A stretch of DNA of 64,000 nucleotides, from positions 14,518 through 78,517 of the forward strand of contig PWEN01000033.1 of assembly GCA_003553505.1 (NCBI GenBank). Reading direction: 5' to 3'. This DNA is from Candidatus Nealsonbacteria bacterium (lineage in GTDB: Bacteria > Patescibacteriota > Minisyncoccia > Minisyncoccales > PWPS01). The notes beneath the pieces are model-generated. The model searched no databases and had not been told where the DNA came from. It saw nothing but the letters and a program-made list of their open reading frames with translations. Shown here piece after piece: positions 3,901-45,310 of the stretch; the first letter of the stretch is position 1; every line of letters starts with the position of its first letter. A program made the translations under genes and the position numbers.

Positions 3901-6900
3901 CTGACCAGGACGAGAGGATGTTTCACTTCATAGAAAATTACGAAAACTGGGAAGGGTATGCAGAATATCTTAATCTTTGGGATGATTATGTCGAAATACT
4001 AAAAGACATGGGTACTAGCGAGTTTGGTTTGTTCGATAGATACTCCAGCCATGCAGGCAATTGGAGTGAGTACGAAAAGTTTTTTGAATATTTAACAACA
4101 AGCAGTCCCGGAATCTTTGAAGAATACTCTGAATACGCAAACAACTGGAGTGACTACGAAGATTTTTTCCTCGAAGAGAACGAGGAGGGGGATGAAGAAA
4201 AAGGAGAGCTTTGGGATGCCTATGAAGATTTTATCGATGAAGATAAGGAGTATCCCGACAATCTTATCGAGTTCATAGTTACAGCAGAACAGTGGGAAAG
4301 CTTCCTGGTGTTCGTAGAAGAAGAGAACTTGATGGACGAAAACTACGACTTTCTCATAGATGAAAACAGATTAAGTGCATCTGAAGTGCAAGACATCGAA
4401 GATGATGCAGAAGAAAACCTACTCTCTATTATAGAGGATAGAGGGTACTTTCCTCTTTTTGAAAACTTTCTTGCAGAAAACAGCCACCTACTAAAAGATG
4501 TTCCCGAGTTTCTTATAGAAGAACAGTTAACGCCACAAGAGATGCAAGACGAAAACATAGATTCGGGAGATATGTTTAATCAGTTCGCCTATCTCATAAT
4601 AGGAGAAGATCCTCTCTACGAGTACTTAGAGTTCCTTTCCCGCCACGACATCTCTTCCTTGTCCAGGCTAAGCGGCTATGAAGAAGATGCGGAAGAGTGG
4701 CACATTGGGCCATTTGGAGAGCCATATCAAGAATCTCTTTTTGAGATATGGCAAGAAGAGGAACCGAGCGAGCCACCCATGGACATTCCACCCTACAAAA
4801 ATGAGATACCTTTTCTTCCTACTCCTGTTGATGTTTGCGACATAGTAGAAGATGAATATCCTCCAGGAGAACCAACTTGCCAAGAGGTGGTAGCTGTCCA
4901 GGAAGAATATGTAGAAATGATGATGGAGTATCTTAGAGTATACTGGCAAGAACAAATTGTGTTTGATGATAGATTAAATCAATTTGGTTTTTATGAGATA
5001 TGGGAAAAATTCTTAGAGTTTCTTAGCATAAACAAGCTTTGGGACGAATTTCTTGTCCAAGCAGAAGACGACTGGTATATAAGAAATTCTGGGCTAAACA
5101 GCTCTCTTCGATTTCTTGATGACCAGAGAGAGTTCGAAAATTTCGTAAACTACATGAAGAACCCTGATGCAGAGATATATCCTCGCACATATAGCATGAC
5201 AAGAGAAGACCTTCTTTGGCGCAAAGCCGGAATAGGAGGAGGATTTTATGGGTCCATGCACGGTTACTGGCATGCTTGGCACGGAGATTACTGGGACAGA
5301 ATATGGGTACAAGAAATACTAGACAACCCTCGTGCTCCCCGGCAACTTGAAACATTCTGGGAAGAAGATGAGCTCTGGTTTCGAATGTGGGAAGACTATG
5401 AAGCCGTACAGCCGTCTCCTATACACGATCCAAGCCTTCAACTAGAAGAAGATGCTGATATCGGAAATGTGCACCTTTTCGAGGCGTTTCATAAGACCGT
5501 AATAGACTACGGCATAAAAACAGATGAAGTATTTAATCTCGAGCTGGACGATGGCAAAAGCGAAAGTGTGATGGACATGACAAAAAAAGATTATCGCGCA
5601 CCAACTTACAAAACACACCTCATGAGAATGGAGGAAGGATACGAAGCACTAAGAGACAATCTTTCTTGGTGGGAATTTGGCCTAGATCCAAAATTGCGCA
5701 TAGCAGCAAAAGAAAGGTTTACAATAGATATGATGGACAAGCTAGTTCCGGCACGCAGCGAAGAAAAAGCAATAGCAAGAGCATGTACTGACCTCTATCT
5801 AAACAGAGGAGAAACCCCTCCCGCCTCTTGTGAAAACAGCCCCTTAAGCGCTTTAAGAAGCAAGTGTAAAGCGGTTCTTCACGAAGAAGAGGAAAGAGAT
5901 CCCGCTCTTCGCGTAAGAATGCCTCAGCCCTGCGCTATCCTTCCTCTTTTTGAAAACTATCTCGACGTTCTCGTAGACGAGTTTGATCCGAGTATAGGAG
6001 GTGGCATGGTCTCAAGAGGAGGAGGAGAGCTTACGGGATATCCTTCAGAAGGAAGCTTTACCGGCTGTGGCTCTGTCTCCGGAAGCGTTCCTGGAGCCCC
6101 AGAAATTCCGGAGATACCCGTAATTCCTCTTTCAGATTACAGTGTTGAAATACCAGACATTGAAACGCCTAATTTTGGATTATCAGGAATTCTGGAAGTA
6201 ACCCTCCCTGATGTAATCATAGAAGACCTTACTTTCCCGGACATAGAACTTTGCGATTTAAGTGACTGTCAGGACTTCTTAGACATCTTTCCTTCCATTA
6301 TAGAGTTGATACCTTCCTTGGAGAACATTTACATCCCCACCCCCGCGATAGTGCCCAATCCGCTAACTCTTGATAGCGCAACTGCGCAAGTGAGTGGACA
6401 CGGAGCCATAACAGTTCCTTTACCTGATGTTCACATAGGAGAAGTAAATCTTCCCTCTGTTCTCTTGGACATTCCACAGCTCCCGGAGATAACACCTATA
6501 TCTATATCTTCTCCCGAGTATGATCTTCCCAGCCTTGAAATACCAGAGCCATATGTAGAGTTTAACTGGGGAGGGTTCGATGTAGATGTTGGTTCTGCAA
6601 TTGTAGGAGCAATATTAAACTATTTTGGTTTTAGTGGCGGAAGTCTTTGCGCTAGCGCTGGCGGAGTAAACTTTCTTCCTTTAAGCATAGGGTTTGAAGA
6701 TTATCATGTTCAGTGGCCAGACTTTCCAAAGATACCCGAAATTCCTCTTTGTCGTAACGCGCGTCAGTTCTGCAGAGACGCTGCCAACAGCCTGCAAGAT
6801 GTCATCGATGAACTCGAAGAGATAATGAGAGAAGTAGAGGAAGAGATACAAGAGGCATTATCAATGCCCGCTGATGCAACAGCAAAGCTAGAAGACCTAA

Positions 6901-7328
6901 TAAACGAAGAAGTGCAAGACTTGGAGGATAGCGTGAACAATTACATTCAAAGCACGCACATAGAAGGAGAGCTTATAGGAGAAACGATAAGATTGGACTC
7001 TTACACTATACCAACAGAAGACATAGAAATAGACGTTTATCTTTCCGATTTAATAGAAGATATGCCAAGCAGCGTAGAGGTTTTGGACGAAGAAGACAGG
7101 ACGGTAGAGCTCACAAACCCCATTGAGATTGAAATGCCCACCATTCCACTTGACGACCTAAGCACTACCTGGGAATATATTGTCGAGCTTCCTGCACTTC
7201 AAGGAATAGATGGCGGTGCTGAATTTGATTGGGGAGAATGCGAGATAGGACCTGTAGAGTATGATGACGTCTATGACTGGGAGCCGTTCGAGCTAGAAGG
7301 AATAGAGATAGAAGTAGAAACTTTCTAG
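978..7328 (+). CDS. giant (2116 aa) hyper-acidic membrane-anchored protein, no recognised domain
   Basis: Uninterrupted 6.35-kb ORF. N-terminal Lys-rich stretch then hydrophobic helix (STSFLLLTLALLIVAGGVGLFHLL). Composition visibly dominated by Glu/Asp with many Trp/Tyr/Phe. Short (I/L)P(D/E) motif clusters near both ends. Gly-rich hydrophobic segment VGSAIVGAILNYFGFSGGSLCASAGGV near the C-terminus. Intrinsic terminator follows. Confidence 0.85.
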   Translation: MLKEKKRSTSFLLLTLALLIVAGGVGLFHLLKDEAEGESRVHYPTRTEVIIEEIEDLVENIKRGDDDGTAFSEIIESMESANCENMNSICDTGNCDPMEDEFLPGSFWDAKEKEKEFIAKQEDIRKNKEHFAFLQNIIKKELAQEDGGLRMELENMREEGQEEKADSMEEDLEVLLFIMDPEDEETQEIISEESVTKGEQRMESWGIDMGIMDIMDKFLSFDYWGDACISACETDWWFEFCVGLQVVQESIDLIFEMELGLEDMEIDPVEISSIDLNLPGEIDIPDPKLSFEIPIPDIGVSFPQATIAEVGAGGALDMSINPIELPSVRIPTPIRERTELCPQYESPASAGSFERHEMQERIGTVALDWHLQVYSYLAQRCMEIPSAAFTRMYCQDIEDEGGVASVISECDTKDAEDLEEDYDSRNICSFAISADHVFDACRDNEDAKGCDRVLDALAEGNEKYACTVALQETSVAGEGSPTEGTILREMTMDERCFDPDELVPTINNTCEYIWSEYSETWMFTDIFREMDRVDLLFIDDYEEWYDFFEWLENYPLNIGPSYSQLEWEKVFFDVSTGTITSYKNNFSTWNSNIEWVEVRTEEECETDEYGNEHCEEFSVGYYDPWHPDQYSNWREALEGEEGAVPFEAKLESIWHEFPDSGSVQTWGSSLPSGSGRRYESGYSYRQFDKDIPGSIISAINEFLSEDIEDMFEFVFEEEIGIYADDKTSWALFFDFVDEDFDEEDEGFNLEKIWEELFELMDERPDIRGGIVREDKFGQYELHRFLKEEEVKEEDLTEEFEDYTDIYPLPQEILVPPRICQEVGVIEEVEEEIDIEIDEKWQEHQMYNYYLIDFFGNYFIPFVNTAALSMDLADKFSDLYDIIDDKYERLSFVNSYGIYKFLSENELINESFDNLPDSAVEYEDYDIPESDYDIPDNFYECRAEGGSEDDCEEYAIPHQEYMDEYYNATGGVGHEADQDERMFHFIENYENWEGYAEYLNLWDDYVEILKDMGTSEFGLFDRYSSHAGNWSEYEKFFEYLTTSSPGIFEEYSEYANNWSDYEDFFLEENEEGDEEKGELWDAYEDFIDEDKEYPDNLIEFIVTAEQWESFLVFVEEENLMDENYDFLIDENRLSASEVQDIEDDAEENLLSIIEDRGYFPLFENFLAENSHLLKDVPEFLIEEQLTPQEMQDENIDSGDMFNQFAYLIIGEDPLYEYLEFLSRHDISSLSRLSGYEEDAEEWHIGPFGEPYQESLFEIWQEEEPSEPPMDIPPYKNEIPFLPTPVDVCDIVEDEYPPGEPTCQEVVAVQEEYVEMMMEYLRVYWQEQIVFDDRLNQFGFYEIWEKFLEFLSINKLWDEFLVQAEDDWYIRNSGLNSSLRFLDDQREFENFVNYMKNPDAEIYPRTYSMTREDLLWRKAGIGGGFYGSMHGYWHAWHGDYWDRIWVQEILDNPRAPRQLETFWEEDELWFRMWEDYEAVQPSPIHDPSLQLEEDADIGNVHLFEAFHKTVIDYGIKTDEVFNLELDDGKSESVMDMTKKDYRAPTYKTHLMRMEEGYEALRDNLSWWEFGLDPKLRIAAKERFTIDMMDKLVPARSEEKAIARACTDLYLNRGETPPASCENSPLSALRSKCKAVLHEEEERDPALRVRMPQPCAILPLFENYLDVLVDEFDPSIGGGMVSRGGGELTGYPSEGSFTGCGSVSGSVPGAPEIPEIPVIPLSDYSVEIPDIETPNFGLSGILEVTLPDVIIEDLTFPDIELCDLSDCQDFLDIFPSIIELIPSLENIYIPTPAIVPNPLTLDSATAQVSGHGAITVPLPDVHIGEVNLPSVLLDIPQLPEITPISISSPEYDLPSLEIPEPYVEFNWGGFDVDVGSAIVGAILNYFGFSGGSLCASAGGVNFLPLSIGFEDYHVQWPDFPKIPEIPLCRNARQFCRDAANSLQDVIDELEEIMREVEEEIQEALSMPADATAKLEDLINEEVQDLEDSVNNYIQSTHIEGELIGETIRLDSYTIPTEDIEIDVYLSDLIEDMPSSVEVLDEEDRTVELTNPIEIEMPTIPLDDLSTTWEYIVELPALQGIDGGAEFDWGECEIGPVEYDDVYDWEPFELEGIEIEVETF

Positions 7329-7343
7329 TTGATAAACACAAGT

Positions 7344-7370
7344 AGGCGCTTCTTTTAGAAGCGCCTTTTG
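7344..7370 (+). terminator. rho-independent terminator after the giant gene
   Basis: aggcgcttct-ttt-agaagcgcct perfect 10-bp stem followed by ttttg. Confidence 0.8.
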
Positions 7371-7379
7371 TGTTAAAAT
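7371..7379 (+). promoter_or_regulatory. extended -10 element (TGtTAAAAT) for rsmA; spacing implies a leaderless mRNA
   Basis: tgttaaaat ends 7 nt before the A of the rsmA ATG (7386); no Shine-Dalgarno possible. Confidence 0.45.
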
Positions 7380-7385
7380 AAAAAT

Positions 7386-8216
7386 ATGAAACTAAACAGG
7401 AAAAAAGCGCTGCAAATCCTTTTGAGTAGACACGCTACAAAACCTTTGAAGTCTCTCGGGCAAAACTTTCTTCTCGACGAAAGTGTACTACACGAGATAT
7501 GCTCTGCTGCAAGACTAAGAAAAAAAGATACCGTTATAGAGATAGGCCCCGGAGCAGGCATACTCACTCTTTGTCTCGCAAAAAAGGCAAAGAGGGTTAT
7601 CGCTATAGAAAAAGACCCTAAAATGATCGCCGCCCTAAAAGAAACAACAAAAAAGAACAAAAACATAAAGATGCTCAACGAAGATGCTCTTTATTCAAAA
7701 ATAAGAACAAAAAATCGCAAACTGATTGCAAACTTGCCTTACTATGTCGCCACACAAATAATAAAAAAGTTTCTCACAAAAAACCTTCCTCCTTCCGTAA
7801 TGGTCGTAATGGTTCAAAAAGAAGTAGCGGAAAGAATGATGGCAAAGCCCCCAAAAATGAATATGCTCTCATCTTTTGTTCAATCACTTTCAAGAGTAGA
7901 AAAAATAAAAATAGTAAAAAAAGGGTCTTTTTGGCCCCCTCCCAAGGTAGATTCTACAGTAATAAGAATATCTCCTTTTAAAAAAAGAGAAACTAAAAAT
8001 TTTTACAAAACACTGTTTTTTTTGCTAAAAACGGGATTTTCTCATCCCCGCAAGCAGTTGTCAGCAAACTTTTCCCGTACGGGAGAGCTAAAAGAACAGA
8101 TTTTTCTCGCTGCAAAAAAATCAGAAATAGACACAAAAAGAAGAGCGGAGAGCTTGTCTGTAGAAGAGTGGAGCAAGATAACAAAAGCACTTCTTTATTT
8201 GCAGGGAAATAAATAA
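7386..8216 (+). CDS. rsmA: 16S rRNA (adenine1518/1519-N6)-dimethyltransferase RsmA/KsgA
   Basis: LGQNFLLDESV... and SAM-binding VIEIGPGAGILT motifs typical of KsgA; 276 aa. Confidence 0.9.
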   Translation: MKLNRKKALQILLSRHATKPLKSLGQNFLLDESVLHEICSAARLRKKDTVIEIGPGAGILTLCLAKKAKRVIAIEKDPKMIAALKETTKKNKNIKMLNEDALYSKIRTKNRKLIANLPYYVATQIIKKFLTKNLPPSVMVVMVQKEVAERMMAKPPKMNMLSSFVQSLSRVEKIKIVKKGSFWPPPKVDSTVIRISPFKKRETKNFYKTLFFLLKTGFSHPRKQLSANFSRTGELKEQIFLAAKKSEIDTKRRAESLSVEEWSKITKALLYLQGNK

Positions 8217-8217
8217 G

Positions 8218-9537
8218 ATGATAATCTTTTCAAAAGTACTTGATTTGCAAAAAATGAAAAAAATCTCAACCAAAAAAATACTTTTTTTGCTTCTTGTTTT
8301 CTCTGTTTTTTTTGTTTTTGCAACAGAAATACACGCTGATGACGAAAGAGAACCGAGGCCTCTCGAGATTGAAGATTATCCTTTCGTTGACCCGGCCCCG
8401 GAAGAAACCGATCATGGAGTAGGAGAATATATCGCTTATATCTTCAATGCTGCCGTATTTCTGGTGGGGGGACTGTTGTTTGCATCTCTTATATATCACG
8501 GCGTGCTTTACATGCTCTCCTCGGGTGATCCGGGAAAGGCGGGCGCCGCAATAGGAGGAGTAAAGTCCGCTTTTGTAGGAGCAGTTATACTCGTTTTCTC
8601 TTACCTTATACTCCAAACAATAAACCCGGAGTTGCTTGATGTAGACCTTGAAGACCTAGACCCTATACAGCCAGAGCCCCTCCCTGCAGGACCTTATGTT
8701 TGTAACTTTCCTCTACCAAATGTAAATTCCATAGTTAGTGGGTACAGGGGCGGAGAAGAATCTAGGGCAGAGGCCATTCTAAGTCTTCACGAAAAGGTGA
8801 GAGAGGAGTCTTTAGATAATCCCGAAGCCAACTGTGAAATCGTAACCAGCACAAGAGAAACAATACTTGAAGGAGACGGGCTGGAGAACACATACTTTGT
8901 CATCCCTTCTATAAAAGAAGAAGGGTCAGTGCTAGAAATAGAACACGGGATAATATTTTTTGGAGACAAAAACGGACTGGAGAACGCCATGTCGCGAAGC
9001 GGATCAAGGTGTCAGATACAACTCGGAGGACCACAAGAAGACGAATATTTTCCCGATGGCATGGAGGTAGGGCCTCATAAAAACTTTAATCTATTGAATT
9101 GGAGAAACAGAGCTTACTCTCTGTCTCCTATAAAAATGTATGTTGATGCCGATGTTACTGCAGAAGTAACTTTTTACGAAGGACACGAATATAATCAACC
9201 TGTTGCTAAAAATGCAGATTTCGAGGGAGATGAGATGGAAGAGTGGACAAAGCAAATAACAAATGGCGAAGAAATAACGGTATTAGATCGTGGAGATTTC
9301 CAAGCAGAAGACTTTCATTGTCAGGACGGCTCTTGTGGAGTAAGGTCTATGCAAGTTGAGAACGCATTTGTTGTTTTTTACGACGACAGAGATTGTTACA
9401 TATTCACCTCAAATAAAAAATATCTTCAAGAGACACTTCCGTCATCAAGAGAAGGCTGGTTTGGAGCCACAGACAGAGGCTTTGACAGAAATACGGACTT
9501 TGATAATGTGCTGATAATAAAAGGAGAAATAAGATAA
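8218..9537 (+). CDS. TrbC/VirB2-like pilin domain fused to a ~300-aa C-terminal soluble domain
   Basis: Signal-like N-terminus (alternative start 8254, MKKISTKKILFLLLVFSVFFVFA). Two hydrophobic helices flank the SSGDPGKAGAAIGGVK loop, the same architecture as the three small pilins at 38.7-39.8 kb. A long Cys-containing C-terminal extension follows. Confidence 0.6.
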   Translation: MIIFSKVLDLQKMKKISTKKILFLLLVFSVFFVFATEIHADDEREPRPLEIEDYPFVDPAPEETDHGVGEYIAYIFNAAVFLVGGLLFASLIYHGVLYMLSSGDPGKAGAAIGGVKSAFVGAVILVFSYLILQTINPELLDVDLEDLDPIQPEPLPAGPYVCNFPLPNVNSIVSGYRGGEESRAEAILSLHEKVREESLDNPEANCEIVTSTRETILEGDGLENTYFVIPSIKEEGSVLEIEHGIIFFGDKNGLENAMSRSGSRCQIQLGGPQEDEYFPDGMEVGPHKNFNLLNWRNRAYSLSPIKMYVDADVTAEVTFYEGHEYNQPVAKNADFEGDEMEEWTKQITNGEEITVLDRGDFQAEDFHCQDGSCGVRSMQVENAFVVFYDDRDCYIFTSNKKYLQETLPSSREGWFGATDRGFDRNTDFDNVLIIKGEIR

Positions 9538-11673
9538 ATGCATATGCGAAAACTATCAAAAAGATTTTATGTAGGCATTACTTCTTTCTTCTTTTTACTT
9601 TTGCCTTTGTTTTCTGCTCATGCTGTTGTTGCTGGCGCGCTTGAAACTGCTCTTTCTTGGTTTTTTATAAAAATCGTAAGCATCTTTTACTGGTTTGCAA
9701 GACTGATCACTCTTTTCTTCAACGACATGCTGCAGTTCGTATTGAGTGAAGATTTTATTCAGTGGCCATACACCAGACCGGGAGAGTCTCCTGACGGAAA
9801 TCCAATAATCGAAGCAGGCCTAAGTGTGACGCTTCCCCTCGTAAACGTAATAATTATATTTGCTTTAATTGTTATCGCTGGAGGAATAATTCTTGGACTT
9901 GAAAAGTACGGCACAAAAAAGATGCTTTTTAGTCTTGTTCTTGTTGCTCTGCTCGTAAACTTCTCTCCTCTTCTTGTAGGACTGGTAGTAGACGCCGCAA
10001 ACATAGCCATGTACTTCTTTGTGCAAGAAGCACAAGACTCATTAAAACACGTATACTCGACAATACAAGGAGGGGGCGAAGTTGTTACAGAACAGGAAGG
10101 CGAAAATAAGCTGGATCAAAACACCTACCAAGCATTGGCATTTATTGTAATGCAAACCTTTGTAACTTTCATAATGGGCTTTATTTTCTTTCTTTACATG
10201 CTCCTTTTCATATTCCGATATATTGCCATATGGATGCTAACAATACTCTCTCCTCTTGCCTTTGCATGTCTTGCTCATCCTTTGTTAAATGAGTGGTGGA
10301 AAAAGTGGTGGAGTCAAACCATACAGTGGTCTATTGTAGGAGTAACAGGAGCATTTTTCATATTCCTGTCTTCAAAGATAAACGAACAAGCAGCTGAACT
10401 ATATGACACTCAAGATATGGGCGGAACAGGCGAAGGATTTTCCCGTTTTGCATCTGAAATTGCAACTGTAACCTTTCCCATGTTTGTCGTTGCTGCTTTC
10501 TTTGTTATGGGATACATTCTTGCTATAACAACATCCGCCATGGGAGCAGACAAAGTAGTAAACTTTGCACAAGAAAGAAGAAAGTGGGCTCAAAAACAAG
10601 CGATGAGAGCACCAAGGTACGCAAAAGATTGGTCAAAAGACAAAGCAAGCAAAGGAGCGCGCAAAGGAGCAGCATACGTTTCCGATAAAACAGGGTTGAC
10701 CAAAAAAGCGGGAGAGGTGGCCACCGCACAAAGATGGGGAGAAGGACAAGCAGGGTTTGGAGGATGGGCAAAAAGAAGAGCTTCCGTTGTGCAGGGAGCT
10801 TGGCGAGCGCCAGCATCAAAGATCGCCGGAGCAGCAGAAAAGCAGCCCGGAAAAATGGTAAAAGATGCGGAAAAGAAGTACGAGCATATAGAAAATAAAA
10901 CAGAAATGGCAAGTAAACTATCAGGAGCAAGAAATGAAGAAGACAGACTCGCAATAATAAAGCAAGCAAAAGAGAAAGGAATGCTTAAAGACGTAATGGA
11001 AAAATCAGGAGACTCTGCAAGAAAGAACTTTGAAGGAATATATGGCTTGGCGGAAAAAACAGGAGACGATAAGACTATAAAGAAAGCTCTTCCTATGGAG
11101 TATATAGCAAAAAAGTCAAGACAAAACATTTCTCAAATAGGAGAGAAGAAGCACAATGAAAACATAAAAGAAGTTTCTAGAGAGCTTGGTAAAGATCCTG
11201 AGGCTCTAAAAAGTGCAAGCGATTCAATTGCAAAAGCAATAGAAAAAGAAGGACCGGAAAGAGATGAGGCAGAAAAAATAATTCAAAATCTTATGCAGGA
11301 AAAAGCGTCTGTATTGCAAACGATGGTAGATAGCTCAGACAAGGCACGAGAAGCTCTTTATAAAACAGCTGAAAGGCATGCAGAAACAGCTGAAAAAGAG
11401 CTCCAAGAATTTTTTGGAAAAAGCTTTAATCACAAAAAACTAAATCGGGAACAAAAACTGTATGCTCTTATGAAGCAAAAGAGAGCCCCTGCATTAAGAG
11501 CCATGGAAAGAGGAATGGCAGACATCGCAATACCCTACGAACACATCCCAGAAAGCTCTCAGGAAACAGAAGGCTCTTCACAGAGCCCCTCGCAGAGTCC
11601 TTCGCAAAGTTCGTCGCAAGAAAGCAATATTATCACAGACCACCCTGATATTAATCGCCATAAAAAGTTTTAA
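9538..11673 (+). CDS. polytopic membrane protein, VirB6/TrbL-like, with long Lys/Glu-rich tail
   Basis: Signal peptide plus at least 7 hydrophobic segments in the first ~340 aa. Then a ~370-aa charged tail ending in SSQSPSQSPSQSSSQ. ATG abuts the stop of the upstream pilin-fusion gene. Assignment rests on topology and context only. Confidence 0.5.
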   Translation: MHMRKLSKRFYVGITSFFFLLLPLFSAHAVVAGALETALSWFFIKIVSIFYWFARLITLFFNDMLQFVLSEDFIQWPYTRPGESPDGNPIIEAGLSVTLPLVNVIIIFALIVIAGGIILGLEKYGTKKMLFSLVLVALLVNFSPLLVGLVVDAANIAMYFFVQEAQDSLKHVYSTIQGGGEVVTEQEGENKLDQNTYQALAFIVMQTFVTFIMGFIFFLYMLLFIFRYIAIWMLTILSPLAFACLAHPLLNEWWKKWWSQTIQWSIVGVTGAFFIFLSSKINEQAAELYDTQDMGGTGEGFSRFASEIATVTFPMFVVAAFFVMGYILAITTSAMGADKVVNFAQERRKWAQKQAMRAPRYAKDWSKDKASKGARKGAAYVSDKTGLTKKAGEVATAQRWGEGQAGFGGWAKRRASVVQGAWRAPASKIAGAAEKQPGKMVKDAEKKYEHIENKTEMASKLSGARNEEDRLAIIKQAKEKGMLKDVMEKSGDSARKNFEGIYGLAEKTGDDKTIKKALPMEYIAKKSRQNISQIGEKKHNENIKEVSRELGKDPEALKSASDSIAKAIEKEGPERDEAEKIIQNLMQEKASVLQTMVDSSDKAREALYKTAERHAETAEKELQEFFGKSFNHKKLNREQKLYALMKQKRAPALRAMERGMADIAIPYEHIPESSQETEGSSQSPSQSPSQSSSQESNIITDHPDINRHKKF

Positions 11674-11684
11674 GATAAACTAAA

Positions 11685-12125
11685 ATGAAGCAATTAACTA
11701 AAGAAGAGCGATTCAAGATATATCAAAGCCTTCCTCAGGAGGCAAAGGATCTTTTTTGGTCAGATGAGGTGATAGACATAATGGACCTGCTCAAATCACG
11801 CTATAAAATAGACAGCAATGACAAGCAGCTTCCGAGAATTACTGGTCTTGTTATTCTCGGAGCAATACCTCTTTCAAAGCTACCTCAAACTCTTTCTTCA
11901 AGAACGGGAGTAGACCAAAAAAAGGCAGAAAAGTTAGCAGATGACATTAAAAGGCACATTCTTTTCCCTATAAAGGATTTTCTTGAGGAAGCATATGATG
12001 AGGATTTTTCTATATGGGAATTTAGAGCAAAAGATGAAGAGATAGAGAGAATAAAAAAAGGAAAAGACACGACACAAAAAGAAGAAACAACAAAAAAAGA
12101 AGACCCTTACAGAGAAAATATATAA
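11685..12125 (+). CDS. hypothetical protein (146 aa, soluble, Lys/Glu-rich C-terminus)
   Basis: ORF with ATG 11 nt after the upstream stop; followed by a bidirectional terminator; no family recognised. Confidence 0.6.
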   Translation: MKQLTKEERFKIYQSLPQEAKDLFWSDEVIDIMDLLKSRYKIDSNDKQLPRITGLVILGAIPLSKLPQTLSSRTGVDQKKAEKLADDIKRHILFPIKDFLEEAYDEDFSIWEFRAKDEEIERIKKGKDTTQKEETTKKEDPYRENI

Positions 12126-12130
12126 AAAAA

Positions 12131-12150
12131 GGGGAAGCAAAAGCTTCCCC
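12131..12150. terminator. bidirectional intrinsic terminator between convergent genes
   Basis: ggggaagc-aaaa-gcttcccc hairpin flanked by an A-run (left) and T-rich sequence (right). Confidence 0.75.
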
Positions 12151-12155
12151 TTCAT

Positions 12156-13451
12156 CTACCAGCCCATTTTTTTATCTATTCTGTCCCGCAACTCCTTACT
12201 CATCTCCCTTGACTGAGAGGGAGTCTTTATAGGACTTTCTTTTTTTCCGCCTCCACCTTCTGCTGCCTTGAGCGCCATAGCGCACTTGGCAAACATGCTT
12301 GGAAGGTCGCCATCTCCTTCTCCGAAGTCTCCCACTATAAATCCATTGTTGTCACGCGCGTACTCCTGTTTTCTTATATTATCCACCAGTTTCCACGCCT
12401 CATGCTTTGAAATGCCATACTCAATGCTGTATTTCTCAGCAAGATCTTCCATGTAGCCAAGACTTTGACGTTTTGCTTCTCTGTCCTTCTCCGCCTTTGT
12501 AACTCTTGCATTCCCGAGAAGCTCTTCCTTTTTGTCCTGAGTGAAAGCTGTCACAATCTCGGGATCCTCTATCTCCATTTCCTCGATCCATAGACCTCTT
12601 TCAGAGATCTTTAATCCATACTTCGAGATCTTTTCCTTGTACTCTTTTCTTGAAGAAATGCCTTCAACGGGAACGTCTGTTTTCATGGTATTTTTGTACT
12701 CCTCCCAGTACTGGGAGTCGGGATTTATTCCCTCCCACAGCTCTTTGCTCTGCCTGCCAACACTAAACAGAACATCAAACCCCACACGCGCTGCAAAACT
12801 ACGCATGAAGTCATCTATCATGGTTAGCAAGCCATCGATACTTGAAGAGGGACTAATGAAGAGATATTTCTCAACATTTATTATTCTCACCTCCACATAG
12901 TACTTGAGAAACATCCCTATTCTCCCAAACTGGGGATGTGTAAACACGTGCGTAACGGTGGAATAATAGATCTCTGGGCGCAGCGGTATGGAGTCCATTT
13001 TTTGAACTTTTTCATGTTCAATTCCGCTTTGTCCACGCCCCTCTTTCCAGTTTATGGAATATCTGTAGGGACGAACCATGGGCCAGAAAAGAGGAAAGAC
13101 CAATCCTCCCAAGAGCCTTTCTCCTCTTCTGTATACGACAACGTCCTGCTCGGCCTCTACTGCTTTCTGCTTATCCCAAACCTCGAAATTTTTATCGAGG
13201 AAGTGGTTCTTCCATGAAATATTTACGTCATGGAGCGCGCCGAATCTCGTGAAGGCAACTGCAGTGCCTTCTCTTACTTGTTTTTTTGTTTTAATAATAA
13301 TAAGCAAGAGAAGAGATCCTGCGACAACAGCCGCTCCGATGTGTGTAAAGTGGAGCAAGTACACTCCCAAACACAACACCACCAACAACAAGAGCTTTAT
13401 AAGAAAAACAGTCCCGTCTATAAACCTTCTTCTTCTTTCCTTGATTGCCAT
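12156..13451 (-). CDS. membrane protein with SPFH/band-7-like domain (tentative)
   Basis: Start moved to ATG 13451, which has GGAGG 6 nt upstream; the listed ORF extends to 13622. Two N-terminal TM helices. VREGTAVAFTRFGALHDV resembles the start of SPFH domains. Charged C-terminal tail. Confidence 0.5.
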   Translation of the reverse strand: MAIKERRRRFIDGTVFLIKLLLLVVLCLGVYLLHFTHIGAAVVAGSLLLLIIIKTKKQVREGTAVAFTRFGALHDVNISWKNHFLDKNFEVWDKQKAVEAEQDVVVYRRGERLLGGLVFPLFWPMVRPYRYSINWKEGRGQSGIEHEKVQKMDSIPLRPEIYYSTVTHVFTHPQFGRIGMFLKYYVEVRIINVEKYLFISPSSSIDGLLTMIDDFMRSFAARVGFDVLFSVGRQSKELWEGINPDSQYWEEYKNTMKTDVPVEGISSRKEYKEKISKYGLKISERGLWIEEMEIEDPEIVTAFTQDKKEELLGNARVTKAEKDREAKRQSLGYMEDLAEKYSIEYGISKHEAWKLVDNIRKQEYARDNNGFIVGDFGEGDGDLPSMFAKCAMALKAAEGGGGKKESPIKTPSQSREMSKELRDRIDKKMGW

Positions 13452-13560
13452 AAAAGCCTCCTTTCTTTCTTTACTTAGGCTGGTAAAATGTTTAAAGAGC
13501 AGTTTATTTATATCATTAATTTTCGATTTTGTAAAGTGTAGAATTTTGATAAAAAATTGT

Positions 13561-13588
13561 TTGATAACTTTTCTTGTTGTGCTAGAAT
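13561..13588 (+). promoter_or_regulatory. sigma70-type promoter TTGATA-16-TGcTAGAAT
   Basis: ttgata (13561-66), 16-nt spacer, tgctagaat (13580-88). The ATG at 13599 lies 10 nt after the -10, implying a near-leaderless mRNA. Confidence 0.55.
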
Positions 13589-13598
13589 GCAAAAAGGT

Positions 13599-14000
13599 AT
13601 GAAGTTTAAAGTGCCAAGACACATAGAGTACGAGTCCAAAATTGTTGCAGGAGTAACCTTCAAGCAGATGGCATATCTTGGAGTTGGAGGAATTTCTATA
13701 TTTTTCCTTTATTTCATCCTTCCTTTTATATTGTTTGTACTGGTTTCTATTCCCATAGCGGGAGCCTCGGCGGCTTTAGCCTTTGTTACCGTAGGAACGC
13801 AAACTCTTCCGGAATACCTAAAAAACTTTTTTTACTTTTCTACAACAACAAAAACATATCTTTGGAAGAAGAAAGACCTACCCCCTGTTCTTAAAACAAC
13901 AAAGAAAGAAGAGAAGGAAGAAAAAGAAGAAAAGGCCGACAAAAGACCAAAAGGAAAAAGCAAGCTTGATGATATGTCAACAAAAATAGAAACATCTTAA
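13599..14000 (+). CDS. PrgI/VirB3-like small T4SS membrane protein
   Basis: MKFKVPRHIEYESKIVAGVTFKQMAYLGVGG followed by two TM helices, then a Lys/Glu tail. Sits immediately upstream of the VirB4 ATPase genes. Start chosen downstream of the promoter. Confidence 0.55.
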   Translation: MKFKVPRHIEYESKIVAGVTFKQMAYLGVGGISIFFLYFILPFILFVLVSIPIAGASAALAFVTVGTQTLPEYLKNFFYFSTTTKTYLWKKKDLPPVLKTTKKEEKEEKEEKADKRPKGKSKLDDMSTKIETS

Positions 14001-14001
14001 T

Positions 14002-14634
14002 ATGGCAATAAAAAGCACACAAGATTTTTTGGAAGTAGATCAAATAAGGAACGGGGTTCTTATTCTTAAAAATAAAGGAATAAGAGGAATTTTAATGGTC
14101 TCCTCTATAAATCTTGCTCTAAAATCAGAAGAAGAACAGCGCTCTGTAATTTATGGATTTGAAGAGTTTTTAAACTCCCTTGATTTTGCTTGCCAGATTA
14201 TTGTGCAATCAAGAAAAACAAACATAACAGGATATATAGATAAAATAAAGGAGCTGGAAAAAAATCAAGAAAACGAGATGCTTAAACATCAAACCGCGGG
14301 ATATAGAGAATTTCTGGAACAGTTCATAAAAAGAGAATCTATACTAACAAAAAAGTTTTTTGTTGTTGTTCCTTACTCTATAGGAGAAGCAAAAAAAGGA
14401 CAAGGTGGAGAGAGCAAAAAGCCAGCAACCAATCTTACAGAAGAAAGATTTGAAAGAGCAAAAGTACAGCTTACACAAAGAATGGAATTTGTTGCCTTGG
14501 GGTTACGCAGGTGCGGACTACAATCCTCTCCTCTTACAACATCGGAGATTATGGAGCTTTTTTGGGGTCTTCACCATCCAAGAGAGGCAGAGAGGGGATA
14601 TTATCCGGAATTTCCTGAAGAGTTTATAAATTAA
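14002..14634 (+). CDS. hypothetical protein resembling the N-terminal region of Gram-positive-type VirB4 proteins
   Basis: STQDFLEVDQIRNGVLILKNKG...SSINLALKSEEEQRSVIYGFEEFLNSL pattern, recalled from VirB4/TcpF-type N-termini. 1-nt gap to prgI-like and 3-nt gap to virB4-like. Confidence 0.35.
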   Translation: MAIKSTQDFLEVDQIRNGVLILKNKGIRGILMVSSINLALKSEEEQRSVIYGFEEFLNSLDFACQIIVQSRKTNITGYIDKIKELEKNQENEMLKHQTAGYREFLEQFIKRESILTKKFFVVVPYSIGEAKKGQGGESKKPATNLTEERFERAKVQLTQRMEFVALGLRRCGLQSSPLTTSEIMELFWGLHHPREAERGYYPEFPEEFIN

Positions 14635-14637
14635 TAT

Positions 14638-16440
14638 ATGAACGAAATTTTAAATAAAATAAAAGAGTTTCTTAATTTAGGTCCTTCTGTTCAAAAAAAA
14701 GAAGAGAAGGATAATATTTTAAGTATAAGAGATATTATTGCTCCTTCTTATATTAAAGAAGAACAAGGAAACATAGAAATAGGAGAAAAACTCTCACGAT
14801 CCTTTTTTGTTTTCTCTTATCCTCACTATCTTTCAAGCGGATGGCTGTCTTCCGTTATAAATCTGAACGCCGTAATGGATATCTCTTTCTTTATCCACCC
14901 TATGGACACGATAACAATGCTTAAAAAGCTACGCCGGAAGCTCACGGACGTACAAGCAGAAATATCAGAAAACCAAGAAAAAGGGCTTGTAAGAGACCCT
15001 ACTCTGGAAACAGCATATCAGGATCTTGAAGAGTTGCGAGACAAGCTACAGTCCGCCTCAGAGAGAATGTTCTACTTTGGTCTTTATATAACCGTTTACG
15101 GAGAAACTCAAGAGGAGTTGTCCGACATGGAGAGTACTCTTCGGTCTATATTTGAATCAAGTGTTATATATATAAAACCGGCCTTCTTTCAACAAAGAGA
15201 AGGGTTTATAAGCACCTCTCCTTACGGAATAGATCTTTTAAATGTGCACACGTCCATGAACACAGAACCTCTTTCCAGTGTGTTTCCTTTTATATCGTTT
15301 GATCTTAGTTCAAACGACGGAATTCTTTATGGTATAAACCTTCACAATAGGTCTCTTGTTCTTTTTGATAGATTTTCTTTAGAGAATGCAAACTCGGTTG
15401 TTTTTGGAACCTCGGGAGCGGGAAAGTCTTATCTCGTGAAGCTTGATGTGCTTCGCTCTTTGATGGTGGGAGCAGATGTAATAATTATAGACCCCGACAA
15501 CGAATACGATATCCTTGCAAAATCAGTGGACGGATCTTTTTTTGATATATCTATAAGCTCTAATGATCGCATAAATCCTTTCGATATACCCACCCCAAGA
15601 GAGGGGGAAACGCCAGAAGAGGTAATAAGATCAAACACAATAAACCTTGTGGGTCTTTTGCGCATAATGCTTGGAGGGTTAACTCCGGAAGAAGATGCCA
15701 TAATAGACCAGGCAATAACGGAAACATACGCCGCAAAAGACATAACTCCGGACAGCGATCCCAATACCTGGGAAGAAAAGGTTCCTCTTTTGTCAGACCT
15801 AGAACAAATACTGGAGTCCATGGAAGGAACAGACTCTCTTATTACGCGACTCAGAAGGTTTACGCGAGGAACATACTCTAGCTTTTTTAATCGTTACTCT
15901 AATATATCAGTAAAAAACAGGCTTACAGTTTTTGGAATAAGAGGACTGGAAGACGAGTTGCGCCCAATGGCAATGTTTATAGTTATGCGCTATATATGGA
16001 AAACTATATGTAGTAGCATAAAAAAGCGCATACTTGTGGTAGACGAGGCCTGGGTAATGATGCAAAACGAGGACGGAGCATCCTTTCTGTTTGGACTTGT
16101 TAAAAGAGCGAGAAAATATTGGTTGGGAGTAACAACAATCACACAAGACGTATCAGACTTTATGAAGTCTCAATACGGAAAGCCAATCGTAACAAACTCC
16201 GCACTAAAAATACTTCTAAAACAATCTCCTTCTGTTATCGATGTTGTTCAAAAAACATTCAGCCTTACAGAACAAGAAAAATTCACTCTCTTGGAAGGAG
16301 AGGTGGGAGAAGGAATCTTCTTTGCTGGTCAAAAACATGTAGCGATAAAAATAACTGCCTCATACGCTGAGGATCAAATAATAACATCCTCGCCGGAAGA
16401 CTTGGCAAAAATAAAAAAAGCAAAAAAAGCTTCTCAATAA
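14638..16440 (+). CDS. VirB4/TrbE/PrgJ-family type IV secretion ATPase
   Basis: Walker A VFGTSGAGKSYLVK, Walker B RILVVDEAW, DIIAPSYI...GEKLSRSFFVFSYP N-domain pattern; 600 aa. Confidence 0.8.
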   Translation: MNEILNKIKEFLNLGPSVQKKEEKDNILSIRDIIAPSYIKEEQGNIEIGEKLSRSFFVFSYPHYLSSGWLSSVINLNAVMDISFFIHPMDTITMLKKLRRKLTDVQAEISENQEKGLVRDPTLETAYQDLEELRDKLQSASERMFYFGLYITVYGETQEELSDMESTLRSIFESSVIYIKPAFFQQREGFISTSPYGIDLLNVHTSMNTEPLSSVFPFISFDLSSNDGILYGINLHNRSLVLFDRFSLENANSVVFGTSGAGKSYLVKLDVLRSLMVGADVIIIDPDNEYDILAKSVDGSFFDISISSNDRINPFDIPTPREGETPEEVIRSNTINLVGLLRIMLGGLTPEEDAIIDQAITETYAAKDITPDSDPNTWEEKVPLLSDLEQILESMEGTDSLITRLRRFTRGTYSSFFNRYSNISVKNRLTVFGIRGLEDELRPMAMFIVMRYIWKTICSSIKKRILVVDEAWVMMQNEDGASFLFGLVKRARKYWLGVTTITQDVSDFMKSQYGKPIVTNSALKILLKQSPSVIDVVQKTFSLTEQEKFTLLEGEVGEGIFFAGQKHVAIKITASYAEDQIITSSPEDLAKIKKAKKASQ

Positions 16441-16821
16441 ATGGAGAACAATGAGGAAGTAACGCTTCAATACAAAGGAGAAAAAGGCAGAATAATTACT
16501 CCTGAAGGCATTACGATGCTTATATCCGCTATTATATTTGATTCTGCCGGGCTTTTAGATTTTTTTCCTATTATAGGATGGATAGCATCATCTATAGCTA
16601 ATGCATCCGGTTTTCTTTTTTTTATAGCATGGTTTATGTTGCGCAGAAAAGTAGGAGCAACAAGTAAAATAAAGGTGGGAAAAGCAGCAAAGTGGGCAAA
16701 AAGAAGAAAGTGGATAAGGCCACTTTTTATGGTGCTAAACCTCTTTCCTGTTCCTTATGTTTTTAGTTTAGTTCCTTTATGGACTGTTGTAGTACTGGTA
16801 GAACTTATATACGGAAGCTAG
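16441..16821 (+). CDS. small integral membrane protein (3 predicted TM), last gene of the T4SS-like cluster
   Basis: ATG directly abuts the virB4-like TAA; hydrophobic segments ITMLISAIIFDSAGLL, IASSIANASGFLFFIAWFML, LVPLWTVVVLVELIY. Confidence 0.6.
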   Translation: MENNEEVTLQYKGEKGRIITPEGITMLISAIIFDSAGLLDFFPIIGWIASSIANASGFLFFIAWFMLRRKVGATSKIKVGKAAKWAKRRKWIRPLFMVLNLFPVPYVFSLVPLWTVVVLVELIYGS

Positions 16822-17261
16822 GATTTTCTTTTAACAACAACTCTTTTTTTCTGTCCCTCGTTTACGCTCTCTGTTTCAATATCATCCTTCTCTGATAGAG
16901 CCATATGAACAACCCTTCTCTCATACGCTGACATGGGAGGGAACTTTTTTTCTATTCCCGTAAGAGAAACCTCTTCTGCCGCCTCTAGTGCCAACTCTTT
17001 TAAATAGTCCATTTTTCTCTTTTTGTAGTTATTGATATCCAAATTAACAAAGACTATATCTTTTGTTTTTTTTCTAACTATCTTCTTTAAAAGTGTTTCC
17101 GTATCAGCAAGCGTTTGTCCTTTCTCTCCTATAAAAGATTGTGGTTCTTTTATTTTTATATTTATATTTAAACAGTTCTCCTCTTCTAAGGAAAAATCCA
17201 CCCTTATATCCTCGTCTATCATTTTAAATATCTCTTTTACTGTTTCTTTTATTTCTTCCAT
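16818..17261 (-). CDS. jag: Jag/KhpB-like RNA-binding protein (KH + R3H)
   Basis: Directly downstream of yidC. C-terminal R3H-like SAYERRVVHMALSE. Start set to ATG 17261 (MEEIKETVKE), 1 nt after the yidC stop. Confidence 0.75.
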   Translation of the reverse strand: MEEIKETVKEIFKMIDEDIRVDFSLEEENCLNINIKIKEPQSFIGEKGQTLADTETLLKKIVRKKTKDIVFVNLDINNYKKRKMDYLKELALEAAEEVSLTGIEKKFPPMSAYERRVVHMALSEKDDIETESVNEGQKKRVVVKRKS

Positions 17262-17262
17262 T

Positions 17263-17955
17263 TTAGTAATTCTTATTAATAACCCTTTGTTGGAAAAGCG
17301 AAAAAACAATAGTAACTATCCAGTAAACACCCACAGCAGACGGCAAGCTTAAAAGTATAAAGAATGTTAATCCCGGAAGAAGATACATCATCTGCGACTG
17401 CATTGCTCCCATCATGCCTTCTTTTTTTTCTTCTTTCTTTGAAGATAGTGATATCTTCATTTGAACAAACTGCCCTAAAGCAGCAATAACAGCAAGAAGT
17501 AAACTGGGAGAAGAAAGATCTATAAATCCTAAAAACACAGTGTTTACAGTTTCCGGCTCAGGAACAAAACTGTAAAGATACTTCATTTGATCGGACTCAA
17601 ACCCGTTAATAAAGATCCTTAAAAGAGCAATAAGTATTGGAAGTTGAATAATTAAAGGCAGTATACCGGAAAAAGGATTGACCTTTTTCTGTTTATAAAA
17701 CTCCATTATTTCTTTTGCTTGTGTTTCTTTATCGTCCTTGTACTTTTCTTGAATTTTTTTTATCTCTGGCTGTATCTCTTGGAGTTCTTTTTGTGATTTG
17801 ACTGCCTTTATACTTAAAGGATAAAGAGCAAATTTTATTATCAAAGTAAGAACTACTATTGAAAGACCGAGCTCTTCAAAGGGAATTATATTATATAAAA
17901 ATATAATTAAATTAAAAAAAGGTTCGTAAAGTACTGTATAGAAAAGATCTATCAT
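17263..17955 (-). CDS. yidC: membrane protein insertase YidC (short form)
   Basis: KSQKELQEIQPEIKKIQEKYKDD...MEFYKQKKVNPFSG...PILIAL motifs; canonical rnpA-yidC-jag order. Confidence 0.9.
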   Translation of the reverse strand: MIDLFYTVLYEPFFNLIIFLYNIIPFEELGLSIVVLTLIIKFALYPLSIKAVKSQKELQEIQPEIKKIQEKYKDDKETQAKEIMEFYKQKKVNPFSGILPLIIQLPILIALLRIFINGFESDQMKYLYSFVPEPETVNTVFLGFIDLSSPSLLLAVIAALGQFVQMKISLSSKKEEKKEGMMGAMQSQMMYLLPGLTFFILLSLPSAVGVYWIVTIVFSLFQQRVINKNY

Positions 17956-18284
17956 AACAGTTCTGCTTTATTTAAAACTTCTTCCATTTTATTTTTAATT
18001 TCCTTGTAAGAACTTCTTTTAACGTCTTCCTTTATAAGAACTACTACATCATAGCCATCTAAAACGCTTACGCTTTTTATTGCTTCCACAACCCTTCTTT
18101 TTATTTCGTTTCTTTCTGTTGCTTTTTTGAAAATCTTTGAGGGAGCAATAAAAGCAAAACGAGAAAAAGAAAGCTCATTACTTTTAATTTTTATTATAAA
18201 AAAGGCATTTTTGATAGTTTTGCCTTTTTTAAAAATATCATCAAAATCTTTCTTTTTTTTTATTCTCCTTTTTTTAGGGAGCAT
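17952..18284 (-). CDS. rnpA: ribonuclease P protein component
   Basis: Basic 110-aa protein between rpmH and yidC; 4-nt overlap with yidC. Confidence 0.85.
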   Translation of the reverse strand: MLPKKRRIKKKKDFDDIFKKGKTIKNAFFIIKIKSNELSFSRFAFIAPSKIFKKATERNEIKRRVVEAIKSVSVLDGYDVVVLIKEDVKRSSYKEIKNKMEEVLNKAELL

Positions 18285-18289
18285 AAAAA

Positions 18290-18424
18290 CTACACGGATA
18301 TTTTCTTTCTTCCTCTTTTTAATCTTCTTTTAATAACACCTTCTCCCGCTTTTGTTCTCTTTCTTATCAAGAATCCGTGGGTTTTTTTTCTTTTTCTTTT
18401 TTTAGGATTATAAGTAAAAGACAT
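18290..18424 (-). CDS. rpmH: 50S ribosomal protein L34 (absent from the ORF track because it is under 60 aa)
   Basis: My translation of the minus strand: [44 protein letters not shown]. This is the classic L34 sequence in the classic position upstream of rnpA. Confidence 0.9.
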
Positions 18425-18601
18425 ATAATTAATAGTTATGTTCGAGCTAAATTCTACCTTAAACAAACAATAAAGTCAATTAAAAGATATGCACAAGAAT
18501 TAACACTTTTTACACAAGTTATCAACAATTCCCCTTTTTTAGGGGGTTTTCCCCAATAATGTTTACTGTGTTATAATGCAAATCAGAATAAAAAAATTCC
18601 T
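18425..18601. other. rpmH-dnaA intergenic region: dnaA promoter plus DnaA-box-like sites (oriC candidate part 1)
   Basis: TTATCAACA (18509-17, one mismatch to TTATCCACA). TTTTTACA motif (18497-504) recurs twice after dnaA. Extended -10 tgttataat at 18569-77. CCCC-T6A-GGGGG-T4-CCCC alternative hairpins at 18531-54. Confidence 0.5.
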
Positions 18602-19933: not shown

Positions 19934-20095
19934 AACTTGTTTATAATTTAAAATATAAAAAAAATATAAAATTATAAACAGTTTTTACACATATAAAAAA
20001 GCGTTATATCAACAAGTTTTTACAAGTTAATTTTAACCAAAAAAGTAAAGTTATCCAGTTAATTAATTACAAACAATAAGTTAATAATTTATTTT
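19934..20095. other. very AT-rich dnaA-dnaN intergenic region (oriC / DNA-unwinding candidate)
   Basis: 162 nt almost devoid of G/C. TTTTTACA at 19982-89 and 20017-24; TTATATCAACA at 20004-14; TTATCCAG at 20051-58. Confidence 0.5.
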
Positions 20096-31352: not shown

Positions 31353-31429
31353 TGGTGGGCGCACCTGGACTTGAACCAGGGACCTCGACTTTATAAGAAT
31401 CGCGCTCTCACCGACTGAGCTATGCGCCC
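31353..31429 (-). tRNA. tRNA-Ile(TAT), CCA encoded
   Basis: Acceptor GGGCGCA/TGCGCCC, anticodon stem CGATT/AGTCG, loop CTTATAA. Confidence 0.8.
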
Positions 31430-39314: not shown

Positions 39315-39316
39315 TA

Positions 39317-45283: not shown

Positions 45284-45310
45284 TATCAAGACAAAGTAAT
45301 TTTGCTTAAA

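Follow-up and report, generated by a model that had tools for sequence, protein, structure and literature searches.

Type IV secretion systems (T4SSs) are a leading candidate for how the ultrasmall, biosynthetically poor Patescibacteria (Candidate Phyla Radiation, CPR) live off host cells, and nearly all members of the phylum carry such a biologically important system on the chromosome, by the replication origin. The portions of a recent survey that we draw on report VirB4 in 2,417 of 3,035 Patescibacteria genomes, as a clade nested in MPF_FATA, with TrsD, PrgI/VirB3, VirB6 and VirB2-like pilins near VirB4 and relaxases almost absent; they place the T4SS of Paceibacteria near dnaA, dnaN, rnpA, rpmH and ksgA, and count a homolog of the type IV coupling protein (T4CP) within 12 genes of virB4 in only 148 of 5,713 cases (Quinonero-Coronel et al., 2025; PMC12102498). 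In Southlakia epibionticum, transposon sequencing (Tn-seq) showed that the T4SS genes SEML1_0006-0019 and the pilins are indispensable to growth as an epibiont (Wang et al., 2023; PMC10633639), and a 2025 review, which calls this the first T4SS essential for its own bearer, speculates on a pilus acting as a conduit in exchange or uptake (PMC12857230). Here we examine a 64-kb stretch of a Candidatus Nealsonbacteria contig (PWEN01000033.1, positions 14,518 to 78,517; hereafter the window, whose own numbering we use) and describe a virB4-centered locus that is, with very little room for doubt, an intact copy of the Patescibacteria chromosomal T4SS.

The system is already known, PMC12102498 and PMC10633639 having described it with the same features. 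This copy brings no new principle, yet it is a clean and complete Paceibacteria-type example with a second pilin fusion, a hydrolase and a VirD4-like gene on the contig. The sole lead that it offers beyond the publications considered here is the frequency of long, fast-evolving pilin fusions beside virB4. The source is a 93.6-kb metagenomic contig (JGI 3300027784), of which precomputed Pfam annotation together with scans of the leftover open reading frames (ORFs) covers ~78 kb. The gene arrangement is reproduced in a second, independent assembly (SRR490134).

Core components and their conservation

The central gene of the locus (14638-16440, plus strand) encodes the C-terminal 600 amino acids (aa) of a VirB4 ATPase, which profile and PDB matches assign to the CD1110/MPF_FATA type. 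Its translation carries both a Walker A (GTSGAGKS) and a Walker B motif (ILVVDEAW). In profile searches it scores 363 bits with the CD1110 family model NF045971 (cutoff 325) and matches PF19044 (E 7e-26), and among solved structures it finds VirB4 (PDB 4AG5, E 8.5e-37) and TrwK (E 4e-7). This 600-aa piece has more than 8000 homologs, of which those named by source all come from Patescibacteria such as Nealsonbacteria and Paceibacterota; the best 120 are 67–86% identical, leaving aside the self-hit at 100%, and measure ~600 aa each.

A TrsD-like protein of 210 aa (14002-14634, plus strand) is the N-terminal domain of VirB4, set apart here in its own gene: it matches NF041427 (TrsD/TraD, E 8e-9), aligns with residues 104-233 of a VirB4 model and carries PF26593 (TraC-like) in the precomputed annotation. 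It is preceded by a PrgI/VirB3-like protein with two transmembrane segments (13599-14000, plus strand; 133 aa from the ATG at 13599, the longest ORF beginning at TTG 13557), which matches PF12666 (E 2.2e-8; 35 bits, cutoff 27). A search for sequence relatives of TrsD and PrgI among solved structures found none. In this locus trsD and virB4 share a frame, parted by TAA-TAT. We considered the in-frame TAA as a sign of a pseudogene or of programmed readthrough and rejected both, since a common frame occurs in 25 of 75 related loci, which is the chance rate, and the homologs are all ~600 aa. For the same reasons, we regard the split of VirB4 as an old two-gene arrangement.

The third membrane component is an extended VirB6/TrbL-like polytopic protein of 711 aa (9538-11673, plus strand). 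It consists of a membrane part (aa 1 to ~340) and a Lys/Glu-rich tail of ~370 aa that, by the positive-inside rule, is probably cytoplasmic. This is the weakest of the family assignments and rests on a precomputed match, homologs and fold: the precomputed annotation gives PF19590 (TrbL_3) for this very protein, PF04610 (TrbL/VirB6) matches 3 of 16 homologs, and a fold search with the AlphaFold2 (AF2) model of the membrane domain, all helical with a predicted local distance difference test score (pLDDT) of 77, gave TrwI/VirB6 chains from R388 for each of its top five PDB hits, 7O3V and 8RT9 included. A phmmer search against the PDB matched nothing. An earlier interpretation of the window, made from its letters (below, the sequence-only reading), had labeled the protein VirB6/TrbL-like, a label that these three lines uphold and the direct profile scan, to which we return, does not. 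The ORF coordinates of that reading, its Walker motifs, the SQSPSQSPSQSSSQ run in the VirB6-like translation and the abutting junctions (9537/9538, 14000/14002, 14634/14638 and 16440/16441) are borne out by the ORF list and translations. Its identification of VirB4, of the PrgI-like protein and of the pilin fusion discussed below agrees with profile scores above the cutoffs, and its VirB4-N-like label for the 210-aa ORF with the alignment to the N-terminal part of VirB4 models.

The conservation set was obtained by scanning one genome per species, which gave 80 loci; window proteins were compared with them by tblastn, and genes were counted within ~10 kb of virB4. Most of the informative record titles name Patescibacteria lineages, and a minority of the 80 carry other or uninformative automated labels (‘Bdellovibrionales’, ‘Pseudomonadota’, ‘Pacearchaeota archaeon’, ‘bacterium’). 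All 80 loci have virB4, with trsD adjoining it in 75 and prgI upstream of trsD-virB4 in 68. The count is 36 each for virB6 and rsmA, 33 for an M23 hydrolase gene, 25–29 for pilin hairpins, and 11, 9 and 4 for orf126, orf146 and orf478, three genes described below; for a 2116-aa protein and the VirD4-like gene, both encoded on this contig, it is 0. For synteny we took as the close clade those relatives whose VirB4 shares at least 61% identity, and required 9 kb of flank to either side. Of the 21 that qualify, 18 have jag, yidC, rnpA or dnaA beside the module, compared with only 1 of 17 more distant relatives. A virB6 homolog lies upstream of virB4 in 19 of the 23 close loci with enough flank. 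The usual order is M23(–), rsmA(+), virB6, ..., prgI, trsD, virB4, pilin fusions, jag(–), yidC(–), rnpA(–), dnaA(+). The conserved order and neighborhood point to a locus that is inherited vertically and keeps a fixed slot in the chromosome, its placement being specific to the class, and synteny thus supports the sequence-only reading.

On the origin side, jag, yidC, rnpA and rpmH (minus strand) and dnaA and dnaN (plus strand), all origin-proximal core genes, occupy 16818-21220, and the dnaA start is 2.2 kb from the virB4 stop. PF00398 and other Pfam matches confirm that the flanks had been named correctly as rsmA and jag-yidC-rnpA-rpmH-dnaA. The further claim that the module sits beside oriC holds only as a statement about gene order: matches to the DnaA-box consensus show no enrichment (11 observed against 13.5 expected), and oriC itself was therefore not located. 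The T4SS module has a GC content of ~40%, the same as most of the window. Over jag-yidC-rnpA-rpmH-dnaA-dnaN (16800-21500) the GC content is 27–30%, compared with 40–44% elsewhere in the window. We rejected a chimeric assembly or a foreign segment as the source of this dip, because an independent assembly spans the junction and an equal dip (25–30%) is present in a relative, L038, whose VirB4 is 86% identical; the latter marks it as a lineage feature of the origin region.

The ~78 kb of annotated contig hold housekeeping genes, including dnaA, dnaN, ruvABC, gyrA, ftsH, rpoBC, ftsK, recA, ssb and 18 tRNAs, and no Pfam family of relaxases, integrases or plasmid functions. Repeats of the att type were not found, only low-complexity ones, and no tRNA lies within 10 kb of the module. 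The absence of a relaxase, an integrase and plasmid functions that had been claimed for the 64 kb thus extends to the longer span, and that of att-like repeats is borne out. The companion claim that there is no coupling ATPase is correct inside the 64-kb window, where no coupling protein (VirD4/TcpA) was found and where FtsK, having both alpha and gamma domains, is a housekeeping protein, but a VirD4-like gene of 803 codons lies 3.6–6 kb to the left of it. Pfam and NCBIfam gave no match to VirB5, VirB7, VirB9, VirB10 or VirB11 in the cluster genes or the precomputed annotation, in agreement with the reported lack of VirB8/9/10-like proteins and VirB11. Because the triad of prgI, trsD and virB4 recurs, the origin slot is shared, and no relaxase, integrase, att-like repeats or tRNA accompany the module, our data support a vertically inherited, non-conjugative T4SS powered by VirB4, as the sequence-only reading had proposed; the GC content of the module agrees with this.

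Pilin fusions, proposed workings and rival explanations

Abutting virB6 is the gene for a 439-aa pilin fusion (8218-9537, plus strand), in which a signal peptide is followed by a VirB2-like two-helix hairpin (aa ~69-134), an acidic Pro-rich linker and a C-domain of ~300 aa. The hairpin matches PF18895 (T4SS_pilin, aa 69-134) with 36.4 bits against a cutoff of 26.6. An exhaustive search of 1.84e9 proteins returned 12 representatives of the C-domain, including the query, all of them 398–461 aa long with the same layout, and only one relative of the fusion came up in a word-indexed search. Six cysteines of the C-domain are invariant (C162, C206, C265, C368, C373 and C393). In VirB2 and TraA pilins the C-terminus faces outward, and an extracellular C-domain fits this orientation together with the invariant cysteines and the acidic Pro-rich linker. 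The AF2 model built on the 12-sequence alignment is poor (pLDDT 50.6), and its fold search against the PDB gave generic helical hairpins only (E at least 1).

A second fusion, of 1005 aa, reaches into the window with its last 323 codons (1-972, ORF 43-972, plus strand), its start and VirB2-like hairpin being ~2 kb to the left (6978-9995 in the coordinates of locus L005, which we use for positions beyond the window). Its signal peptide and hairpin are arranged as in the 439-aa fusion, and it matches PF18895 slightly below the cutoff (E 3.5e-5, 24.2 bits), the pilin-like model NF045849 over aa 49-106 (E 8.7e-6), and a custom hairpin hidden Markov model (HMM; E 1e-23). Three tandem small VirB2-like pilins of 117, 105 and 118 aa (38647-39000, 38997-39314 and 39399-39755, plus strand) match PF18895 with E 4e-12, 9e-10 and 3e-10, the second also matching PF04956 (TrbC/VirB2, 29.5 bits); the array is flanked by a methyltransferase gene, which adjoins gyrA, and by tRNA-Leu. 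The source contig encodes five pilin-hairpin genes in all.

In relatives, matches to both fusions are limited to the first ~150 residues, that is, the hairpin region. In a census with the hairpin HMM, 82 ORFs lying no more than 10 kb from virB4 in the 80 species have the hairpin near the N-terminus; of these, 56 are longer than 300 aa, 12 longer than 800 aa (maximum 2274) and only 6 no longer than 160 aa. Judging from these sequences, most virB4-linked pilin-like proteins of this clade are long fusions whose ectodomains evolve fast, possibly a new detail. Being long and rapidly diverging, the cluster-linked fusions are candidate host-specificity determinants. We advance, as a tentative idea whose chances we put on the low side, that virB4-linked VirB2-like proteins of the Paceibacteria type are mostly non-structural and represent pilin-anchored, fast-evolving surface proteins of 300 to more than 2000 aa, which VirB4 and VirB6 would load on the pilus tip or base and which would set host recognition. 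If this is true, such proteins would replace the VirB5 tip protein of diderms and the PrgB-type adhesins of Gram-positive conjugation. The portions of PMC12102498, PMC10633639 and PMC12857230 that we draw on contain no discussion of this architecture.

The machine is monoderm-type, MPF_FATA-derived and kept by the phylum as a core cellular organelle, not as a conjugation device. We consider a core-organelle T4SS with pilus-centered workings to be the best overall explanation and probably correct, while on the pilus-centered mechanism taken by itself we are evenly divided. In R388, pilus biogenesis is driven by VirB4/VirB6. In the mechanism that we propose here, a two-piece VirB4, composed of the TrsD-like N-domain and the 600-aa ATPase, would be docked to the membrane by PrgI/VirB3 and would lie beneath the VirB6-like platform, with the K/E-rich tail reaching into the cytoplasm. 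ATP hydrolysis by VirB4 would pull VirB2-like pilins from the membrane and polymerize them on VirB6, yielding a pilus or conduit across the cell wall in which the small pilins encoded at 38.6–39.8 kb are likely the major subunits. The wall would be opened by a LysM-LysM-Peptidase_M23 protein recognized by its domain matches and encoded upstream of the window (L005 5829-6767, ~2.3–3.2 kb to the left, minus strand); its gene occurs near virB4 in 33 of 80 loci, usually by rsmA, and the enzyme may therefore act in a VirB1-like manner. The 439-aa and 1005-aa fusions would anchor by their hairpins, probably as minor or tip subunits, and show fast-evolving, disulfide-bonded ectodomains to the host cell, so that the machine would serve the host-dependent lifestyle by contact and macromolecule transfer. 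Our data show what the parts are, that they are conserved and that mobility genes are missing from the ~78 kb of contig; that a pilus is assembled, that the fusions sit at its tip, how the tail is oriented and what is carried we infer, and by analogy we would take essentiality from the Saccharibacteria literature.

Several observations weigh against this explanation. To our knowledge, no experiment has been done on a Paceibacteria-type T4SS and no pilus has been seen there. No VirB8-like subunit was identified with Pfam or NCBIfam among the cluster genes. Direct Pfam hmmscan of the VirB6-like protein, at full length or with the N-terminal half, matched nothing, and its fold matches are weak, with TM-scores of 0.50–0.59 on the target and E values of 6e-3 to 5e-2. 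The ectodomain of the 439-aa fusion could not be modeled (C-domain pLDDT 30–40) and hence presents no adhesin fold. The small pilin array is 22 kb away from virB4, and its tie to the T4SS is assumed. Finally, the 803-aa VirD4-like ATPase, 12 genes and 18 kb upstream of virB4, means that a substrate, DNA included, may be translocated.

This ATPase is the presumed translocase in a rival explanation in which the machine, like Helicobacter ComB or Sulfolobales Ced, would bring in host DNA or nucleotides and so feed a nucleotide-auxotrophic cell. It is a membrane protein (L005 3021-5432, 3.6–6 kb left of the window, minus strand) with TrwB_AAD_bind and DUF8128 matches. The former is above its cutoff (30.5 bits against 20.5), the match to NF045973 (CD1115 VirD4-like) is distant (E 1e-8, 34.6 bits against a cutoff of 250), and the PDB match to TrwB is confined to the Walker A region; on these profile matches the protein is a candidate coupling protein. 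The authors of the survey, in the portions drawn on here, favor a role in importing DNA or other macromolecules (PMC12102498). VirB4 is weakly similar to CedB and CedD, although its scores of 55.7 bits (cutoff 700) and 24.8 (cutoff 600) are below both cutoffs and the conjugative VirB4 model scores 363 bits. The window also encodes RecA, SSB and FtsK, though these are housekeeping proteins. On the other hand, none of the 80 loci has a homolog of the VirD4-like gene up to 10 kb from virB4, and the module contains neither a recognizable DNA-binding component nor a detected VirB8, VirB9 or VirB10 family of the ComB type. In S. epibionticum, moreover, the T4CP homolog is not essential, unlike the T4SS genes, and comEC is dispensable, its loss abolishing transformation while growth is unaffected (PMC10633639; PMC12857230). 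Taken together, these data make DNA import unlikely.

It is likewise improbable that the machine exports effectors into a host bacterium, in the manner of the bacteria-killing T4SSs of Xanthomonas or of Streptococcus suis 89K, with the pilins forming a short channel only. Wang et al. (2023; PMC10633639) suggested protein export on the ground that neither relaxase nor coupling proteins are present, and the large lineage-specific proteins of the cluster (1005 aa and 2116 aa) speak for it. However, we found no recognizable effector, immunity pair or secretion signal, the T4CP-like receptor has no counterpart near virB4 in the 80 loci, and the N-terminal hydrophobic segments of the two large proteins (leader and hairpin in the 1005-aa protein, a single transmembrane segment in the 2116-aa protein) fit Sec-dependent surface proteins better than cytoplasmic cargo.

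A third rival, in which an integrated conjugative element (ICE) contributed the module as its transfer region or left it as a decaying remnant, is essentially excluded. The top models do come from ICE and plasmid families (CD1110, Mbov_0397 ICE ATPase, TrsD of pGO1), VirB4 is here split by an in-frame TAA and the contig also carries a VirD4-like gene, but many species have the module in this slot, with rsmA on one side and jag-yidC-rnpA-dnaA on the other, VirB4 stays 68–86% identical and ~600 aa long across metagenome-assembled genomes, the split is ancestral, no integrase, relaxase or oriT (in the window and the annotated ~78 kb), att-like repeats or tRNA target accompany the module, GC content matches the surroundings and two independent assemblies agree.

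Other genes of the module and window

The sequence-only reading had called the module minimal, which overstates the case given the three small pilins, the 1005-aa fusion, the M23/LysM hydrolase and the VirD4-like ATPase of the neighborhood. Its gene list was also incomplete, as it omitted a 478-aa minus-strand gene, the small pilins at 38647-39755 and the tail of the second fusion (43-972). Five nucleotides after the 1005-aa fusion begins the gene of a very acidic 2116-aa protein (978-7328, plus strand) with one N-terminal transmembrane segment and repeated I-P-x-P and E-I-P motifs. It matches no Pfam or NCBIfam family and has no tblastn homolog in the 80 related loci; it is a candidate surface protein, its link to the T4SS being suggested by position only. 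The housekeeping gene rsmA/ksgA (7386-8216, plus strand; 16S rRNA dimethyltransferase, PF00398, E 1.4e-55) stands inside the cluster, separated from the 2116-aa gene by a terminator-like hairpin of 10 pairs (7344-7366). This and the other promoter and hairpin calls are consensus scan matches only.

Downstream of virB6, orf146 (11685-12125, plus strand; 146 aa) keeps the same position in 9 related loci. It is convergent with orf478 (12156-13592, minus strand), which encodes a membrane-anchored protein of 478 aa inside the module and has its start 6 nt away from that of prgI. Between orf146 and orf478 lies a strong terminator-like hairpin (12128-12153; 11 pairs, 6 of them GC). In 4 related species orf478 is kept at the same place and on the same strand, and its only similarity is a sub-threshold match to HflK (SPFH, E 0.72). 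The best sigma-70-like promoter match of the region, TTGATA-16-TAGAAT with a TG (13561-13588, plus strand), ends 10 nt before the prgI ATG. Because this match and the hairpin flank orf478, two plus-strand transcription units are suggested, and from the sequence we would predict them to be rsmA-pilin fusion-virB6-orf146 and prgI-trsD-virB4-orf126. The last of these genes, orf126 (16441-16821, plus strand), abuts the virB4 stop and encodes a small membrane protein of 126 aa, a putative accessory subunit; it is directly downstream in 11 related loci. Family profile scans (Pfam, NCBIfam) matched nothing in orf146 or orf126. The 3′ ends of orf126 and the convergent jag overlap by 4 nt (16818-16821), so that the T4SS operon meets the origin cluster head-on without an intergenic terminator.

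Elsewhere in the window, parts of a type IV pilus are encoded by a gene for a T2SSE-family ATPase (25243-26553, minus strand) and one with a prepilin peptidase N-terminal domain (48056-48772, plus strand); the organism therefore has both type IV pilus and T4SS filament systems. ARAGORN found a tRNA-Ile with anticodon UAU (31353-31429, minus strand). Such a tRNA is uncommon in bacteria, most of which decode AUA by a lysidine-modified CAU tRNA. A lamin-tail-domain protein (PF00932) is encoded between ruvC and ruvB (23600-24244, minus strand), and the precomputed annotation lists an [FeFe]-hydrogenase-like protein with Fe_hyd_lg_C, Fe_hyd_SSU and ferredoxin domains (45302-46981, plus strand).

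Comparison with known systems

With the MPF_T systems, R388 Trw and Agrobacterium VirB, this locus shares the VirB4 core, the VirB6 fold and a match to the VirB2/TrbC-type hairpin. It differs from them in having no VirB5, VirB7-10 or VirB11, a VirB6 with a 370-aa tail, a VirB4 in two genes and a monoderm envelope. The best-scoring models for VirB4, TrsD, PrgI and the VirD4-like protein come instead from MPF_FATA, represented by Clostridioides difficile CTn2 (CD1110/CD1115), Staphylococcus aureus pGO1 (TrsC-TrsD-TrsE) and Enterococcus faecalis pCF10 (PrgI). MPF_FATA and this locus have in common the lack of a VirB7/9/10 outer-membrane core and of VirB11. However, the conjugative systems of MPF_FATA are mobile and have a relaxase, oriT, an adjacent T4CP and surface adhesins and no VirB2 pilins, whereas this locus keeps a fixed chromosomal place, encodes several pilins and is without a relaxase in the ~78 kb of contig.

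Candidatus Southlakia epibionticum ML1, a member of Saccharimonadia, has a T4SS that is likewise chromosomal, origin-proximal and Gram-positive-like, with pilin genes and no relaxase. There, six small pilins stand in tandem within the cluster, whereas the locus studied here, known from its genes alone, has its small pilins 22 kb off and long pilin fusions in the cluster. From the Paceibacteria arrangement, as given in the portions of PMC12102498 drawn on here, we see no essential difference. Those portions treat VirB2 homologs as small and do not comment on long virB4-linked fusions, and a VirD4-like gene within 12 genes of virB4, as found here, is rare in that survey. The two arrangements agree in a VirB4 with adjacent TrsD, PrgI/VirB3, VirB6 and VirB2-like pilins and no relaxase, in the origin-side neighbors dnaA, dnaN, rnpA, rpmH and ksgA, and in a nearby M23/LysM hydrolase.

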